From IMG/VR virus record IMGVR_UViG_3300012943_000028, positions 64,001-128,000 of that record: a stretch of DNA of 64,000 nt; one strand, written 5' to 3'. Below, one piece after another: positions 14,394 to 54,418 of this stretch. A program made the translations under genes and the position numbers. The stretch comes from a virus (Duplodnaviria > Heunggongvirae > Uroviricota > Caudoviricetes). The notes below the pieces were generated by a model, which worked only from the letters and a program-made list of their open reading frames with translations, did not search any database and was not told where the DNA came from. The stretch's first letter is position 1; each line of letters opens with the position of its first letter.

Positions 14394-15335
14394 TTAATCG
14401 TTCCAGACAATTGCCTTGACACCATTTAGCTTTGGATCGCGGCTGTAGTTGTACACATGGAAGGTCCAGTGAGTGATATCACCTTCACCGTCTTTGTGTT
14501 CCTGCATTGACGTGAAGGCGGCAAGATCATCAGTGCGGATTGATCTGATACCAAAACCTTCATCAGCAGCATCGTTCCAGATGCGACCTTTCCAATTACG
14601 GCCCAGCGATGAAGCTTCAGCGCTGAACGTCTTATCACCCTTGTCATAGTGAAACAGCCTTGAGCTGTGGACAGGGCCGATGAAATGTGGCTCATGGTGC
14701 TTTGGGATTCCAGCCTCAGCAAGACTTTCATACTGACTTGGATGACCCATTGGGTCTTCAAAGTGATCATCGCTGTTGAGGTGGTCTTCAATCTGGCGCA
14801 TTGATGGCGCATTGTACGCCTTCAAGAAGTGGTCAACCTCATGCTCACCAAGTGGTCCCTTCTTCTCAGCTGACTTGCCAAATCCCTTTGGATAGATGTA
14901 GAAGTCGCCGAATGCCTGCTCGATGTGGATCGTCTCACCGCCCTTGCTGACAGTGAAGCGCTCGATGCGAGTTGGATCAGAACCGCGCGTGTTGTAATGG
15001 TGCGTTGAAACACTCCATCCGTCCATGTCAGCGCTTTCAGTCACCTTCTCATGTTCCTTTGGAAAGAAGTAGGTTGACTTTTTGTTCTGCTGTTCCTTAG
15101 GAGGAGAGACGCGAGCGTACTTGTCACCACGATAGGTGAACACTTCAACTACCCATGGGCCTTCAGCGGTGTCAACGAACTTGTGCGACACGCGCTTGGC
15201 CTTCATCAACGTAGCGGCATCTGCCTCTGACGTTGTGTCAAGCTCATCAGTACCAAGGGCAGCACGAACCATCTTGAGGATTTTGTCCTCAATTAGCGCC
15301 TCAGCAACGAACGTCTTAAATGAGTTCTTGCTCAT
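14394..15335 (-). CDS. putative internal head polyprotein (3 modules)
   Basis: MSKNSFKTFVAE|A leader; VTE|S and LAE|A junctions. Confidence 0.65.
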   Translation of the reverse strand: MSKNSFKTFVAEALIEDKILKMVRAALGTDELDTTSEADAATLMKAKRVSHKFVDTAEGPWVVEVFTYRGDKYARVSPPKEQQNKKSTYFFPKEHEKVTESADMDGWSVSTHHYNTRGSDPTRIERFTVSKGGETIHIEQAFGDFYIYPKGFGKSAEKKGPLGEHEVDHFLKAYNAPSMRQIEDHLNSDDHFEDPMGHPSQYESLAEAGIPKHHEPHFIGPVHSSRLFHYDKGDKTFSAEASSLGRNWKGRIWNDAADEGFGIRSIRTDDLAAFTSMQEHKDGEGDITHWTFHVYNYSRDPKLNGVKAIVWND

Positions 15336-34063: not shown

Positions 34064-34411
34064 CTATTTAGTGGGTAGCTTACAGAAGTCCTTTAGAATG
34101 GTCTCCTCCACCTCTTCTGAGACAGCCTGCGCAACGTTCCCGTCCTGCACCTGCTTTCGAAAGCTGTAGCGGACGGCGCATTCTGCCGATTCCTGAGCTG
34201 TCTTGAACGGCATTGGATAGTTGCGGTCAGCAACTCGCGTCTCGAGGAAGGCGAGGCGCTTGCGCGCATATTCCATGTTTGCACCACGCGCCTCAATGCT
34301 CTCAATGGCGGGCATGTATTGAGCTGTGAGCGGTGGAACTGCGACTTGCGAGAAGGAAACTACAGGGGCCGTAGCGATGACGGTAGCAAGAAATTTGTAG
34401 AGGTCTTTCAT
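34064..34411 (-). CDS. exported protein with signal peptide
   Basis: MKDLYKFLATVIATAPVVSFS-Q; two Cys; CTAAATA late promoter at 34438-34444. Confidence 0.6.
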   Translation of the reverse strand: MKDLYKFLATVIATAPVVSFSQVAVPPLTAQYMPAIESIEARGANMEYARKRLAFLETRVADRNYPMPFKTAQESAECAVRYSFRKQVQDGNVAQAVSEEVEETILKDFCKLPTK

Positions 34412-34457: not shown

Positions 34458-34487
34458 AAAAGAAAGGACCTGCAAGAGGTCCTTTCT
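34458..34487 (-). terminator. rho-independent terminator ending the putative ncRNA
   Basis: AGAAAGGACCT-CTTGC-AGGTCCTTTCT-TTT, 11 bp stem. Confidence 0.85.
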
Positions 34488-34558
34488 AGGAAAACGCGGG
34501 ACGGGTGTTTTTCAGATGGTTATCCTGTCCATTACGTGGAGCCTAAGCTGTATCCACG

Positions 34559-34632
34559 TGGTGCCTCGGGAATCGAACCCAAGCCCTCCCAGTAGAAAAC
34601 TGGGTGTGCAGCCCACCTACACTAGTGCAACC
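34559..34632 (-). tRNA. non-canonical tRNA-like element (TTC in anticodon position; defective acceptor stem)
   Basis: D arm GTGT/GCAC with GG, anticodon arm CCCAG-TTTTCTA-CTGGG, T arm TTGGG-TTCGATT-CCCGA; acceptor GGTTGCAC/GGCACC needs 2 bulges; U at position 37. Confidence 0.45.
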
Positions 34633-34682
34633 TCCATCTAGCATGCTTCTTTTGCGACGTCATTGCCATTCGTCGATAAGTC

Positions 34683-34711
34683 ATTCTATCACGCAGCAAT
34701 CTGAAGTAAAC
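34683..34711 (-). promoter_or_regulatory. T4-early-type sigma70 promoter
   Basis: GTTTAC-17nt-TAGAAT with extended TG. Confidence 0.7.
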
Positions 34712-34736: not shown

Positions 34737-34766
34737 CAAAAGAGAGGGGACCGAAGTCCCCTCTCT
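34737..34766 (-). terminator. rho-independent terminator
   Basis: AGAGAGGGGAC-TTCG-GTCCCCTCTCT-TTT (UUCG loop). Confidence 0.9.
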
Positions 34767-34789: not shown

Positions 34790-35062
34790 TTAGAGGTGGT
34801 CGAACACCTGAACGTCGTGCTTGCTGCCCGATGCGTCAGCTGAGCCCCATGGGCCAGTTGCGCCGGCAGTGCCGTCGTTGGTTGCGAACGTGTAGTCAGT
34901 TGGGTCGTCCTTGCTATTGACGATCTCGCTGAGCACACCGCGGCGGTTCTTCAGATAGGTTGCGATCTTGGTCATCGTGTCCTTGTTGTTGCCTGCGCTG
35001 AGAGCTGCAACTGCGGCATCGAGGGCGGCTGCTGCGCCAGAAACTTTCTTGAGTACGGCCAT
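34790..35062 (-). CDS. small protein downstream of MCP, possible capsid decoration
   Basis: Own late promoter GTAAATA (35118-35124), AAGGAG RBS, own terminator. Confidence 0.7.
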   Translation of the reverse strand: MAVLKKVSGAAAALDAAVAALSAGNNKDTMTKIATYLKNRRGVLSEIVNSKDDPTDYTFATNDGTAGATGPWGSADASGSKHDVQVFDHL

Positions 35063-36469: not shown

Positions 36470-37375
36470 TTAGATGCCAGCAAGCTTCTTCAGCTGAAGA
36501 TACTTGTCCTGCTTGGCTGGTTCTGCTTGCTTGGCTGGAGTCTCAACAGACTCGTCACCGGTAACGACTGACGTAGCGGCCTCAGTTACGATTGGCTTGT
36601 CAGCTTCCGACTTGGCGGCTGGGGCAGCTGCTGCTGGTGCAGCCTCTTCCTTCAACACGCGGCCGATGAAGTGGTTGTAGGCTTCTTCGAGGCGTGCAGT
36701 CTCGACATTTGCAAGCACAAATGCCATCTGCTCACGCTTCTTGCCCTGAAGTGGTGCGAGAATCTTCTCAAGCTTGGCTTCACGAACCATCTTGGCGTTG
36801 GATGCTTCCAGTGCCTTGATCGTTGCTGCAGCTTCCTCGACCTTGCCGAGTGCTGCCGTGAGCTGAGTCTGAATCGATGCCTCATCGACATAGTTCTTGC
36901 TGAACTCGGAAACGAAGGCTTCAAACATGCGACGACCGAAGTCGTTCTGCTTGACCACTTCCAGGTCTTCCTTGAGTTCCTTGAACTCTTCCTCGAGACG
37001 GTGCTCGAAGAATGCGTCCATCTTGTCGATCAGCTGGTCGAGTTCACCGCTGAGCTTCTCTGCCATTGCGTGCTTCTCTTCGACGATCTTCTCGGCATAC
37101 TCTGCCTCGAGATCACGGAAGCGCTCAATGTCGGCCTTCAGCTCTGCGACTTCCTCTTCGAGCTTCTTGGCCACGAATGCTTCGACGTTCTCAACGAGTG
37201 CGTCGCGTTCGGTCTGCCACTGCTCTGAAATCTCGTGTCTCACTTCGATGGAAACTTCCTCACGAACAGTTTTCTTGTACTCTTCGACGGCGGAAGCCCA
37301 CTTGGTGGAGATTTCGGTCTTAGCTTCCTCGCTGAGGAGCTCGGAGCTAAGCAATTTCTGTAGGATTTCATCCAT
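36470..37375 (-). CDS. gp22: prohead core scaffold protein
   Basis: Acidic coiled coil, FGRR.FEAF, directly upstream of MCP. Confidence 0.9.
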   Translation of the reverse strand: MDEILQKLLSSELLSEEAKTEISTKWASAVEEYKKTVREEVSIEVRHEISEQWQTERDALVENVEAFVAKKLEEEVAELKADIERFRDLEAEYAEKIVEEKHAMAEKLSGELDQLIDKMDAFFEHRLEEEFKELKEDLEVVKQNDFGRRMFEAFVSEFSKNYVDEASIQTQLTAALGKVEEAAATIKALEASNAKMVREAKLEKILAPLQGKKREQMAFVLANVETARLEEAYNHFIGRVLKEEAAPAAAAPAAKSEADKPIVTEAATSVVTGDESVETPAKQAEPAKQDKYLQLKKLAGI

Positions 37376-37489
37376 GCAGTTTCTCCTTCTTATGGGGGTG
37401 GTTAGAGACTTGGTCGCCGTCTCTAAGGGCTTGAACCTTACGCGTATCGTGTCTGAAACAAGTTCAGACCTGCGTTGAACGTACGATTC

Positions 37490-37496
37490 TATTTAC
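37490..37496 (-). promoter_or_regulatory. late promoter GTAAATA
   Basis: NTAAATA ~115 nt upstream of the scaffold gene. Confidence 0.55.
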
Positions 37497-37567
37497 AAGA
37501 TCACACAAAAAATCGCAAAAAACCAATCACATTTGGGCAGCTATCGACTGCCCGTATGCCGATATGA

Positions 37568-47541: not shown

Positions 47542-48798
47542 CTAGTCAACAGAGACTCGAATAGATGTCTCTCGTGTAATGTGGTGGCTCAATTCTTCTG
47601 GAGCCAGATCGGTTTTCACACCGTCAATTCCATCATGGAGCATCAGTCCAGTCTTGCCTGATGCTTCCCAAATCTTGTAGCGTGCCTCGCGCTCCCACGA
47701 AAAGTACTGCCTGAAGATGTCCTTCTGGTTTTGCTTTGTCGGCCTCTTGCCGGCAAACAAACAAAGGTCTCGACGTGCTGCAGCGAATTGGCGGGCAACT
47801 ACGGATAGCCGGCCACCAACAACTAGCCGTTCAGATGGCGTCATGTCAGGGCAGGCCTCATGAACGAGGCGCACTGCCTCCGAACGACCAGAGCCGTTCG
47901 TCATCATCGTCGGTGAGATGTTTGAACCATTGGCCAAGGCCATGATGATCTTCTTCACCTTGTCAATGTTGTCATCTGACGGCTCAAGCCCGAGAGTTCT
48001 GCACAGCTCAAGGCGGAAGGCGGTCTTGTTTCTATTGGCGCGCAGCAGCTCGGGGTATTTCAGCTCGAGGCGGCGAGGATTGCTCGCATACTTCTTCTCG
48101 AGCCGCTGCACGACAAATTGAAGGTAGGCGTTGTCAATGTCGACGGACGCCCCAAACATCTCACGACGCAGCCAGCTTGGCCACATCTCGATGGAACGAA
48201 TGGGCCAGATGGACTTGTCCCTCGCCATGAGGGTGCCAGCTGGCTCAAAGTAAAAGGTGATTGGTGACTGCTGCTTACAGAGCCACTCCACTGGAGCGAT
48301 GAGATCGTCTCGACCAGTTCTCTTAAGCTCCGCAACAACCCATGTAGCCTTTCCTGGCTGCACGTGAACGCTGCTCATTGTAAGCTTCTTGCACGTCGGC
48401 GCCAGCCCAGGTTCAAACACCACGTCATCACTGATGGCGGCGATGGCGTGCCACATCTTACGGTTGAGGCGGCGTGGCGTGATGATGGATGGAGAGCGCT
48501 TGTTGCTGTCGAAGTAGTAGCCGACTCTCTTGACAGTAAAGAAGCGCTCAAGGATTACCTTAGCGTCCTTTACCTGGCGTGTGAGGTTCGTGATGAAGGT
48601 CTCACGCTCGACAAAGCCCTCAGCTCCAGGATGGTTCTTGACGATGCGGTACCAGGCAAGGGCGATAGAGATGATGAGGCCTTGGCGCTGCTTACGCTTG
48701 CGCCACCACATTCCCTTGAGGGCGAAGAAGTTGCCGACGTACAATGGGTTTGAACGATCAAGCTCTTTTTCAATGTTGACAGGGTAGAACGTCAGCAT
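47542..48798 (-). CDS. hypothetical protein with family A polymerase-like palm motifs
   Basis: SVDIDNAY (motif A-like), KVKKIIMALANG (motif B-like), LMLHDGI (motif C-like). Confidence 0.5.
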   Translation of the reverse strand: MLTFYPVNIEKELDRSNPLYVGNFFALKGMWWRKRKQRQGLIISIALAWYRIVKNHPGAEGFVERETFITNLTRQVKDAKVILERFFTVKRVGYYFDSNKRSPSIITPRRLNRKMWHAIAAISDDVVFEPGLAPTCKKLTMSSVHVQPGKATWVVAELKRTGRDDLIAPVEWLCKQQSPITFYFEPAGTLMARDKSIWPIRSIEMWPSWLRREMFGASVDIDNAYLQFVVQRLEKKYASNPRRLELKYPELLRANRNKTAFRLELCRTLGLEPSDDNIDKVKKIIMALANGSNISPTMMTNGSGRSEAVRLVHEACPDMTPSERLVVGGRLSVVARQFAAARRDLCLFAGKRPTKQNQKDIFRQYFSWEREARYKIWEASGKTGLMLHDGIDGVKTDLAPEELSHHITRETSIRVSVD

Positions 48799-49298
48799 GA
48801 ACGAGCGAGAGCCTCAGAGTAGCGAGGTTCTGCGAGACCAGTCCCATATGCCCACTCAAAGCCAGAGTAGACACGGTAGCCGTAGCTGCCGATCTCAAGG
48901 CCACCAAGCTCGAGGTCAATGCCGTCGAGGGTGTTCACCTCAGTACCACCGAGAAACGCGTGGGCATCATACAGCACGTGAGAGAAGTCGATGGTGCCGT
49001 ACTCACACAACTCTACCTTGAAAAAGTATGGGTGATGGTGAACTGACTTCACCACATCGTCGAAGCGAAAGCACGGACCGGCCGAGACATACTTTCCAGG
49101 CTTGATCTTTCGGTTCACCATGAGGTCGATAAAGCCCTGCTCTGCCGAACCAACGAGATACCCACCGTGGCACTTCTCAAGCGTGCCTGGAAAGGTGACG
49201 GCCTTTATGTGCTGGTGAACTACCCATGGGGTGTCCACGTATTTGTAGCCGAGCTTCTCGTAGAACTTGATAGCGTCGGCGATGCGTTGATAATTCAT
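48792..49298 (-). CDS. minimal class II aminoacyl-tRNA synthetase-like catalytic domain
   Basis: GY..VDTP (motif 1), GSAE, GPCFR...F.KVE (motif 2), EIGS, GTGLAEPR (motif 3). Confidence 0.75.
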   Translation of the reverse strand: MNYQRIADAIKFYEKLGYKYVDTPWVVHQHIKAVTFPGTLEKCHGGYLVGSAEQGFIDLMVNRKIKPGKYVSAGPCFRFDDVVKSVHHHPYFFKVELCEYGTIDFSHVLYDAHAFLGGTEVNTLDGIDLELGGLEIGSYGYRVYSGFEWAYGTGLAEPRYSEALARSC

Positions 49299-53387: not shown

Positions 53388-54418
53388 AGTCTCTGGTAGA
53401 TGTCAATCAAACGGGATGGGTCGATGGTGCTGGTGCCGGTCACGCCAGCTTGCAGCATGCCAACAACGGCGTCGTTCAGTGATGTGAGGTCGAAGTCCTC
53501 AATGCTCTCACCTTCAGTCAGCGCATCACGACGCTCGTAGAGGTTCTCCTCAAGAGAGAACTCACGAAGGTTTAACTCCTTCGTCATCTCATCACGCAGC
53601 GCCTGCGCATCTGAGTAACCAATCTCAGCGTCGATGATGCAGCGCACTCGACATTTCTCTGGGAACTCAAGCATGGAACCGTCGAAGATGGCCGACAGCT
53701 TCACCTTGCGGTACTTCGGACAGTCTTCCCAGTCGATGAAGTCAACCTCATCAGTCTCTGTGTTGAGGACGCACATGCCACGCTCGTCGTCCCATGCATC
53801 GCCGTAGTCCATTGGGAAGCAGTTGCCGATGTACACGACGTTGTCGCAGGCCTGACGCTTGTGGAAGTGGCCTGAGAAGATGTACGTCGGTCCTGCAAAC
53901 ATCGTGTGCTCAGGGCCGTGCTCCATACGGCGGTCTGAACCCGTGACGACGAAGTTGCGGAACTCGAAGTGACCCATCCAATATGGAAGGTTCGTGTGCT
54001 TCACGAGATCGGCGTACTCGTCCTTGAACATGAACGGTGCGAGCAGCAGCTTGTCCTCAATGACAATAGGATCGTTCACGAGGTTGATGTTCTTGAACTC
54101 ACCGAAAACCTTCGTCGAGTAGACGCTGCGGTTCTCACGGTGATAGAGGTCGTGGTTGCCGATGATGATGTACACGGGCAGGCCAAGCGAGTTCAGCTCA
54201 ATGAGCGCCTCATGGGCGCAGTTGAGCGTCATCACGTTGACTGAGTTGCGGTTCTCAAACCAGTCGCCCATGAAGACGACGCGTGAAATCTCTGGGTCCT
54301 TGCGCACGTTTGCGCAGAACCAACGCACAAAGTCCAGGCAATCCTGGTTGTGTTGCACGGAATTGTTCTTCTTGCCGAAGTGAATATCCGTGAACATCGC
54401 TACTTTCTTTAGCGACAC
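53384..54418 (-). CDS. gp47: recombination endonuclease subunit (Mre11/SbcD-like)
   Basis: DIHFG, GDWF, GNHD, GHFE, SGHFH. Confidence 0.96.
   Translation of the reverse strand: MSLKKVAMFTDIHFGKKNNSVQHNQDCLDFVRWFCANVRKDPEISRVVFMGDWFENRNSVNVMTLNCAHEALIELNSLGLPVYIIIGNHDLYHRENRSVYSTKVFGEFKNINLVNDPIVIEDKLLLAPFMFKDEYADLVKHTNLPYWMGHFEFRNFVVTGSDRRMEHGPEHTMFAGPTYIFSGHFHKRQACDNVVYIGNCFPMDYGDAWDDERGMCVLNTETDEVDFIDWEDCPKYRKVKLSAIFDGSMLEFPEKCRVRCIIDAEIGYSDAQALRDEMTKELNLREFSLEENLYERRDALTEGESIEDFDLTSLNDAVVGMLQAGVTGTSTIDPSRLIDIYQRL

Follow-up and report, generated by a model that had tools for sequence, protein, structure and literature searches.

A stand-alone tRNA-like gene with a broken acceptor in a jumbo phage that carries Ro60 and Y-RNA-like genes

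Bacterial Y RNAs combine tRNA-like arms with a site for the protein Ro60. The Deinococcus radiodurans Y RNA Yrn1 places a potential anticodon arm between its D and T arms (PMC4201824), and the tRNA-like domain of Y RNA is described as binding an "unknown factor" (10.1101/312249). Other papers link phage Ro60 to counter-defence (PMC12135203, PMC11482910), report a counter-defence role for the RNA repair genes of jumbo phages (PMC7824862) and describe phage tRNAs that counter tRNA-cutting defences by serving as resistant working tRNAs (PMC10264068, PMC11555353). Within the literature searched, which included few subscription papers, neither the element described here nor phage Y RNAs of D-anticodon-T order were described.

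We analysed a tRNA-like RNA unit on the minus strand at 34458-34711 of a 64,000-nucleotide window, the whole stretch of DNA studied, which corresponds to bases 64001-128000 of a 358,444-base phage record (G000); the unit thus lies near 98.5 kb in that record. It sits about 500 bases downstream of a capsid gene whose product is ~62% identical to its counterparts in Ralstonia phage RsoM2USA and Xanthomonas phage XacN1, and it is flanked by ORFs of 90 and 115 amino acids. The features of the unit and its borders, in window coordinates, are:

34790..35062, minus strand: flanking 90-aa ORF, a slot marker outside the RNA
34741..34766, minus strand: upstream intrinsic terminator of 11 bp that closes the 90-aa ORF, the left border of the cassette
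34683..34711, minus strand: promoter GTTTAC-17-TAGAAT with an extended -10, putative start site near 34677
34655..34675, minus strand: 5' hairpin, pair probability 0.88-0.97
34629..34649, minus strand: 5' side of the interrupted terminal stem in the predicted fold; C34645 is bulged, and 34638-34634 reads GAUGG
34606..34632, minus strand: acceptor-like 5' strand, U8-A9 (34624-34623) and D arm
34588..34604, minus strand: anticodon arm of 5 bp (6 with U32-A38)
34566..34587, minus strand: 5-nt variable loop with C48, then a T arm of 5 bp whose T loop is canonical
34559..34565, minus strand: what is left of the acceptor 3' strand, in which the CCA at 34561-34559 is buried
34534..34559, minus strand: closed hairpin of 7 bp, which would correspond to the closed acceptor stem in a YrlA-order reading
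34515..34532, minus strand: weak D-arm-like hairpin, in which 34525-34515 exactly complements a conserved Y RNA 11-mer
34490..34512, minus strand: A-rich junction leading into the 3' side of the terminal stem, where CCGUC (34504-34500) precedes a U run
34458..34487, minus strand: the element's own intrinsic terminator, 11 bp followed by three U
34064..34411, minus strand: flanking 115-aa ORF, a slot marker outside the RNA

As originally predicted, the unit has the makings of an insulated, early-type non-coding gene. The -35 hexamer GTTTAC (34711-34706) is separated by 17 nt from a -10 hexamer TAGAAT (34688-34683) with an extended TG, and the proposed 11-bp terminator forms at 34487-34461 with pair probabilities of 0.85-1.0; having three U, it does not appear in a terminator scan that requires five T. 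The promoter belongs to a common class in this genome (20 sites, every one on the minus strand), and its strict 17-nt form occurs 4 times versus 0-1 in five shuffles. Promoters of this class also precede two of the phage's Y-like RNAs, the one in front of the Ro60 gene (G000 297441) and the one at 353996. Small ORFs in the unit, at most 33 aa on the minus strand (longest ATG frame) and 41 aa on the plus strand, had no support as genes.

The closest relative, with a capsid protein 96% identical and ~75% nucleotide identity over matched stretches, retains both flanking ORFs and the upstream terminator (80% over 81 nt). In its partial records (157 kb, plus a 108-kb record syntenic with the tRNA arrays), the slot lacks the element and holds a 122-aa ORF (L057 5833-6201) that matched nothing in Pfam at the cut-off; a terminator-like hairpin, as judged by eye, comes after it. 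Because a protein gene occupies the slot there, the cassette is exchangeable as a unit, which favours an autonomous transcript and is silent on function. Elsewhere in the capsid region, a structured leader upstream of the gene preceding the capsid gene (about 37375-37500 of the window, minus strand) contains three hairpins, one of them T-loop-like; the closest relative conserves this leader, with changes in the stems.

The element lies outside the tRNA arrays of G000, which span about 303-358 kb and 1-3 kb. Two tRNAs with CUA anticodons are encoded at G000 333454-333621 (minus strand), although TAG terminates 26 of 189 long ORFs. Separate from the element are a tmRNA at G000 14953-15296 (minus strand) and a partial match to RNase P RNA (L198 5404-5661, minus strand, 63.9 bits).

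The D, anticodon and T arms all form (pair probabilities 0.67-1.0), bearing out the near-perfect arms seen in the original prediction. ARAGORN calls a tRNA-Glu(TTC) at 34557-34631, its sole call in the window, and the Rfam tRNA model scores 28.6 bits (E 7.5e-4), just below its gathering score of 29; together these results indicate that the cloverleaf exceeds chance. At gathering thresholds Rfam returned zero matches in the window, in keeping with the earlier view that the RNA belongs to no known family, and at E 10 the best match was again tRNA. The 4-bp D stem is extendable to 6 bp (pair probability 0.98), with G18G19 present and A21 absent; the anticodon stem (0.98-1.0) closes the loop UUUUCUA, with UUC at 34597-34595; and the T arm pairs at 0.67-0.89. 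Nucleotides of the tRNA elbow (U8, A14, G15/C48, G18G19 and the T loop) are in place. All 14 core stem pairs are intact at a best identity of 37/59 to any of 371 tRNAs, an intactness that is partly an ascertainment effect.

The acceptor, by comparison, is broken, as its non-chargeable appearance had suggested. It forms 1 of 7 pairs in the strict register and 4 of 7 in the better of two registers, its bulged pairing has a probability of at most 0.003, and the encoded CCA sits 4 nt past the T stem, where a cut would leave about 3 acceptor pairs. Among the 56 intron-less tRNA calls in G000, 55 carry a terminal CCA, the element being the sole exception, and 52 have the 7 acceptor pairs that it lacks. 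Position 37 is indeed U (34594); in 51 of the 53 loops that could be located, a purine occupies this site. The other exception is a tRNA-Asp(GTC) with a full acceptor (G000 307717-307790, minus strand), and because this otherwise normal tRNA of the same phage shares U37, the feature is unusual without being diagnostic. The tRNA-Asp is possibly an anticodon-nuclease-resistant variant.

Around the core, the proposed local hairpins were recovered, at 34675-34655 and, for ACGTGGA/TCCACGT, at 34559-34534 (pair probability 0.73-1.0). Positions 34674-34667 formally fit the YrlA motif GNCGAAN0-1G, here within the local 5' hairpin and outside the terminal stem. In the favoured fold, 34649-34629 pairs with 34509-34490 as a 16-bp interrupted terminal stem (GAUGG/CCGUC), the 5' strand of which weakly resembles the handle of phage Y RNAs. 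The longer-range pairings of the original prediction fared less well: the outer helix AGATGG/CCATCT exists as sequence but has a pair probability of 0.0002 and costs 6.2 kcal/mol to enforce, while the pseudoknot GGACAGG/CCCGTCC offers 6 of 7 pairs and -8.5 kcal/mol as a free duplex before loop penalties, yet excludes the favoured stem. ViennaRNA cannot score the fold that combines helix and pseudoknot, and neither it nor the terminal-stem fold is established by modelling.

The proposal that structured flanks enclose the cloverleaf did not hold up statistically. The joined flanks are about as stable as their shuffles (z -0.27), removing the terminator leaves the transcript at z -1.27, and the leader-trailer duplex ranks 17th of 56 among tRNA flanks, with 1939 of 3000 random windows pairing equally well. 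We rejected an apparent significance of the terminal duplex (5 of 2000 own-strand shuffles), which reflected a post hoc choice and was erased by a same-geometry control.

Homologue searches returned no second copy of the element. By BLAST and nhmmer, 86 INPHARED phage records matched, none across more than 32 nt of the element, and searches of plasmids, 79 capsid-gene loci, 33 related records, three relatives and 400 bacterial genomes of one class were negative. A single-sequence covariance model of the element, run on 35 + 4 records, its own genome, 57 pattern loci and 10 loci, returned just ordinary tRNAs or motif-only matches (best 26.9 bits). Pattern scans of viral contigs gave 1, 78, 48, 1 and 3 matches, those of metagenomes 0 and 44, and those of genomes 12; all were chance or ordinary tRNA matches, plus a Y RNA of the relative G002 among the viral contigs. 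One further scan gave 5 matches, 3 of them Y RNAs. Neither outcome named beforehand as refuting the prediction was obtained: Rfam gave no family, and ordinary tRNA-Glu homologues, which would have pointed to simple decay, were not among the matches. These searches returned no homologue of any kind, however, and with zero homologues there is nothing to covary.

While looking for unannotated T arms, we came upon a family of RNAs that share a handle. A Ro60 gene is present in 4 of 5 records examined, including G000 (295.9-296.8 kb), and an RtcB gene in none of the five. The handle motif AACCG-N4-13-GGTTATC occurs 10 times in G000 (0 for the reversed control) and in 6 of 6 near-complete virus records versus 0-1 for the reversed control, with seven to nine matches per genome in five near-complete relatives. 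From sequence, we read these RNAs as Y RNAs because one copy lies beside Ro60, the stem carries a bulged C, and the YUAY motif described for YrlA (PMC4201824) is present. That copy is directly upstream of the Ro60 gene in both G000 and G002; most G000 Y-like genes are more than 4 kb from it. The Rfam YrlA model is insensitive to them, giving one weak match (E 0.19) in 34 kb. The family includes minimal, YrlA-order and tRNA-ordered CCA-ended forms, and a further D-(anticodon)-T subfamily is found in four phages, at G000 305807, G002 114271, G034 49015 and G036 13043. The loci are:

G000 1433-2053, 297368, 305807, 309091-309683 and 352957-357211, minus strand (loci L198-L200): at least ten unannotated Y-RNA-like genes with one handle
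L200 11669-11806, minus strand: D-(anticodon)-T subfamily member
L201 14267-14402: D-(anticodon)-T subfamily member
L269 375-512: D-(anticodon)-T subfamily member
L272 331-446, minus strand: D-(anticodon)-T subfamily member

About 19 cases are tRNA-ordered hybrids of Y RNA and tRNA, including those near 357211, 309683 and 309448 in G000; they consist of an acceptor, a D arm, a small-loop-closed Y handle in place of the anticodon arm and a T arm, often with a CC or CCA end. To judge by this layout, the hybrids could be RNase P substrates and perhaps chargeable. In members of the D-(anticodon)-T subfamily the handle encloses a D arm, a middle arm that varies between the phages, a T arm and an acceptor of 3 bp. 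The G002 copy has a canonical anticodon arm in the middle position, with a stem similar to that of the element; in G000 and G034 the middle arm is enlarged, and G036 lacks it. In the four-sequence alignment 98.9% of cells pair and two pairs are changed on both sides, a covariation that is not significant with four sequences (29 of 500 shuffles). This repertoire of linear, tRNA-ordered CCA-ended and D-anticodon-T Y RNAs is better supported than the element itself.

The element shares the D-anticodon-T order, and its enclosing terminal stem is predicted with high probability yet at background level. It is colinear with two D-T-order Y RNAs plus a 52-nt insert. In a post hoc comparison by eye, 11 of 15 positions of its 5' strand agree with one G000 Y RNA, and a bulged C is kept. 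Two invariant Y RNA motifs (the AACCG/TTGTT helix and TTATC) are missing. After three of 37 linear Y RNAs with misassigned partners had been dropped, 34 remained for the handle models, and the 27 of these from outside G000 were used for training. The strict model gives the element -18.8 bits, versus +25 to +42 for eight full-handle Y RNAs. A covariance model of four D-T-order Y RNAs recovers its T arm only (10 bits, E 3.3) but gives as much as 41 bits to other Y RNAs of G000, and a profile of hybrid 5' halves did not report it at E 50. A lenient handle model trained without G000 chooses the register of the predicted terminal stem, a score matched by 4-5% of background peaks, and ranks the 3' half 35-47 among all minus-strand positions.

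Nor did the YrlA model RF02553 match the element at E 10, and to read T-AS-D order into its 3' half one must allow an insert of 7 nt and accept a weak hairpin as a second D arm. The element lies ~197 kb from Ro60; the YrlA criterion is a distance within about 4 kb. Pairwise scores against the 37 Y RNAs were set aside as evidence, the top match sharing the T arm and the second having one. Membership of the Y RNA family by sequence was therefore rejected, by the strict handle, D-T covariance and hybrid-profile tests, and was borderline in the lenient model: missing invariant motifs and failed models place the element outside the family. These tests are biased against the element because the training set was chosen on a motif that it lacks, and descent from the phage Y RNA family is plausible and unproven.

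Our tentative preference is for a divergent, Y-RNA-style tRNA mimic or decoy that cannot be charged and whose Ro60 site has eroded. This reading is favoured by the shared promoter class, the exchangeable slot, the intact arms beside a broken acceptor and the clade's Ro60 and Y RNAs of the same design, and further by the colinear alignment, the register chosen by the lenient model and the D-anticodon-T order of Yrn1. It is weakened by the lack of any homologue in the collections searched, and hence of covariation or proof of conservation, and by the failed handle, covariance and profile tests, the background-level duplex, the distance from Ro60 and the occurrence of U37 in tRNA-Asp. Under this model, the early-type promoter would drive a transcript of ~220 nt that would fold into an L-shaped tRNA-like elbow with the UUUUCUA loop exposed. 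The interrupted terminal stem would seal the ends in place of an acceptor, and the RNA, unchargeable and probably derived from a phage Y RNA whose Ro60 site has eroded, might titrate host factors that read the tRNA elbow or the anticodon loop, such as a tRNA-directed defence nuclease. We consider a tRNA-cutting defence nuclease the likeliest target because phages of this clade invest in supplying and repairing tRNA, and because counter-defence roles have been reported for phage Ro60 and for the RNA repair genes of jumbo phages.

Almost as likely, and the main rival to a Y-RNA-style mimic, is a decayed or captured tRNA gene caught between a promoter and a terminator, its flanks incidental and its RNA without a specific role. 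The element is a singleton across every collection searched, is absent from the slot of the closest relative, and has flanks and a terminal duplex that resemble background; moreover, the phage already owns a tRNA-Glu(TTC) at G000 310021-310096. Simple decay, however, must explain why the lesions are concentrated in the acceptor while every arm pair survives at such low identity to known tRNAs, why the promoter and terminator are intact, and why a shortened acceptor within a terminal stem is a conserved design in the clade.

A more specific form of the mimic reading, which we regard as rather unlikely, is that the element is a Y RNA now free of the Ro60 particle, encoded by a mobile early cassette and baiting a host defence nuclease directed at tRNA-Glu. 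Anticodon nucleases such as RloC prefer tRNA-Glu, and a full elbow with a UUC loop, no chargeable end and a second, YrlA-like module might suit such a bait. If true, the element would be a phage counter-defence RNA that acts as bait and not as a replacement tRNA.

We judge it improbable that the element represents an unrelated new ncRNA class with an outer helix and a pseudoknot, possibly a two-conformation switch. Both alternative pairings exist as sequence and are mutually exclusive, the Y RNA tests failed and no Rfam family applies. Against this stand the near-zero probability of the outer helix when no pseudoknot term is included, the lack of homologues and the need to dismiss the Y-like traits as coincidence; the novelty first claimed is also weakened because D. 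radiodurans Yrn1 and Y RNAs of this very clade already have the same design.

The original prediction had also proposed a partner for the RNA, encoded in the same window:

48792-49298, minus strand: 168-aa stand-alone class II aaRS-like protein

It is highly unlikely that the element is processed into a tRNA-Glu that can be charged despite its odd acceptor, perhaps with the help of this protein. The ARAGORN call, the encoded CCA and the phage's RNase P RNA and Thg1 gene would allow it, and the element and the aaRS-like gene are both missing from the closest relative, a single observation. Yet the few acceptor pairs left by a cut after CCA, with their negligible pair probabilities, speak against charging. 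GluRS is a class I aaRS, whereas the protein shows class II traits. It has 326 relatives and no solved-structure match by sequence; its gene is patchy in the clade (3 of 20 records searched), and in the carriers XacN1 and G015 the covariance model of the element finds ordinary tRNAs only.

The Thg1 gene has one further link to the element. The complement of the Y RNA 11-mer at 34525-34515 recurs on the minus strand only once, in the 5' hairpin of the Thg1 leader, just behind a promoter (G000 53823-53885, minus strand; L294) in which an inverted 8-mer pair flanks the -10 box. Least likely of all is an antisense sponge that opens phage Y RNAs through this loop-displayed complement, which could pair with 7-11 nt of 10 of the 12 Y-like RNAs in G000 but is missing from 13 of 13 other Thg1 leaders, gains no more in co-folding than shuffles do (-4 to -8 kcal/mol versus a mean of -6.1, sd 3.8) and, in scans for a T arm plus the complement, gave only ordinary tRNAs or coding matches.

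As a singleton, the element cannot yet carry claims about decoys. An unchargeable cloverleaf in a swappable early cassette would nevertheless offer an easy way to ask whether a decoy alone can counter a tRNA-cutting defence, and what the tRNA-like domain of Y RNA binds. Such RNAs are mislabelled as tRNA-Glu by tRNA scanners.

Set beside known RNAs, the element resembles tmRNA in placing tRNA mimicry inside a larger RNA; tmRNA, unlike the element, has a chargeable acceptor and no anticodon arm, and neither ARAGORN nor Rfam made a tmRNA call for the element. With phage-encoded tRNA-Glu(UUC) it shares the D, anticodon and T arms and the UUC at the loop centre, but it lacks the 7-bp acceptor, the terminal CCA and A21, has U37 and lies outside the arrays. 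Like YrlA (PMC4201824; 10.1101/312249), it mimics a tRNA elbow without a free CCA; a formal fit to GNCGAAN0-1G lies near its 5' end, and its 3' half could be read as a T arm, a closed 7-bp stem and a D-like hairpin. YrlA is permuted (T-AS-D) with the Ro stem at the anticodon position, whereas the element keeps the D-anticodon-T order, lacks the YUAY motif and has a 7-nt insert after the T arm.

In Yrn1 (PMC4201824), a terminal stem encloses T, potential anticodon and D-like arms, and the free acceptor end is missing, a layout also predicted for the element. Yrn1, which is encoded beside Rsr, keeps both strands of a metazoan-type Ro helix; its loop has 6 nt and its D arm is poor, whereas the element lacks an intact Ro helix, lies far from Ro60 and has a 7-nt loop, a full D arm and two extra hairpins. 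The clade's D-(anticodon)-T Y RNAs, finally, run parallel to the element from a handle, which its predicted stem resembles weakly, through the D arm, the middle arm and the T arm to an acceptor of 3 bp and an A-rich junction; they carry an intact AACCG/TTGTT helix and TTATC, both missing from the element, and lie in tRNA arrays, whereas the element stands alone.
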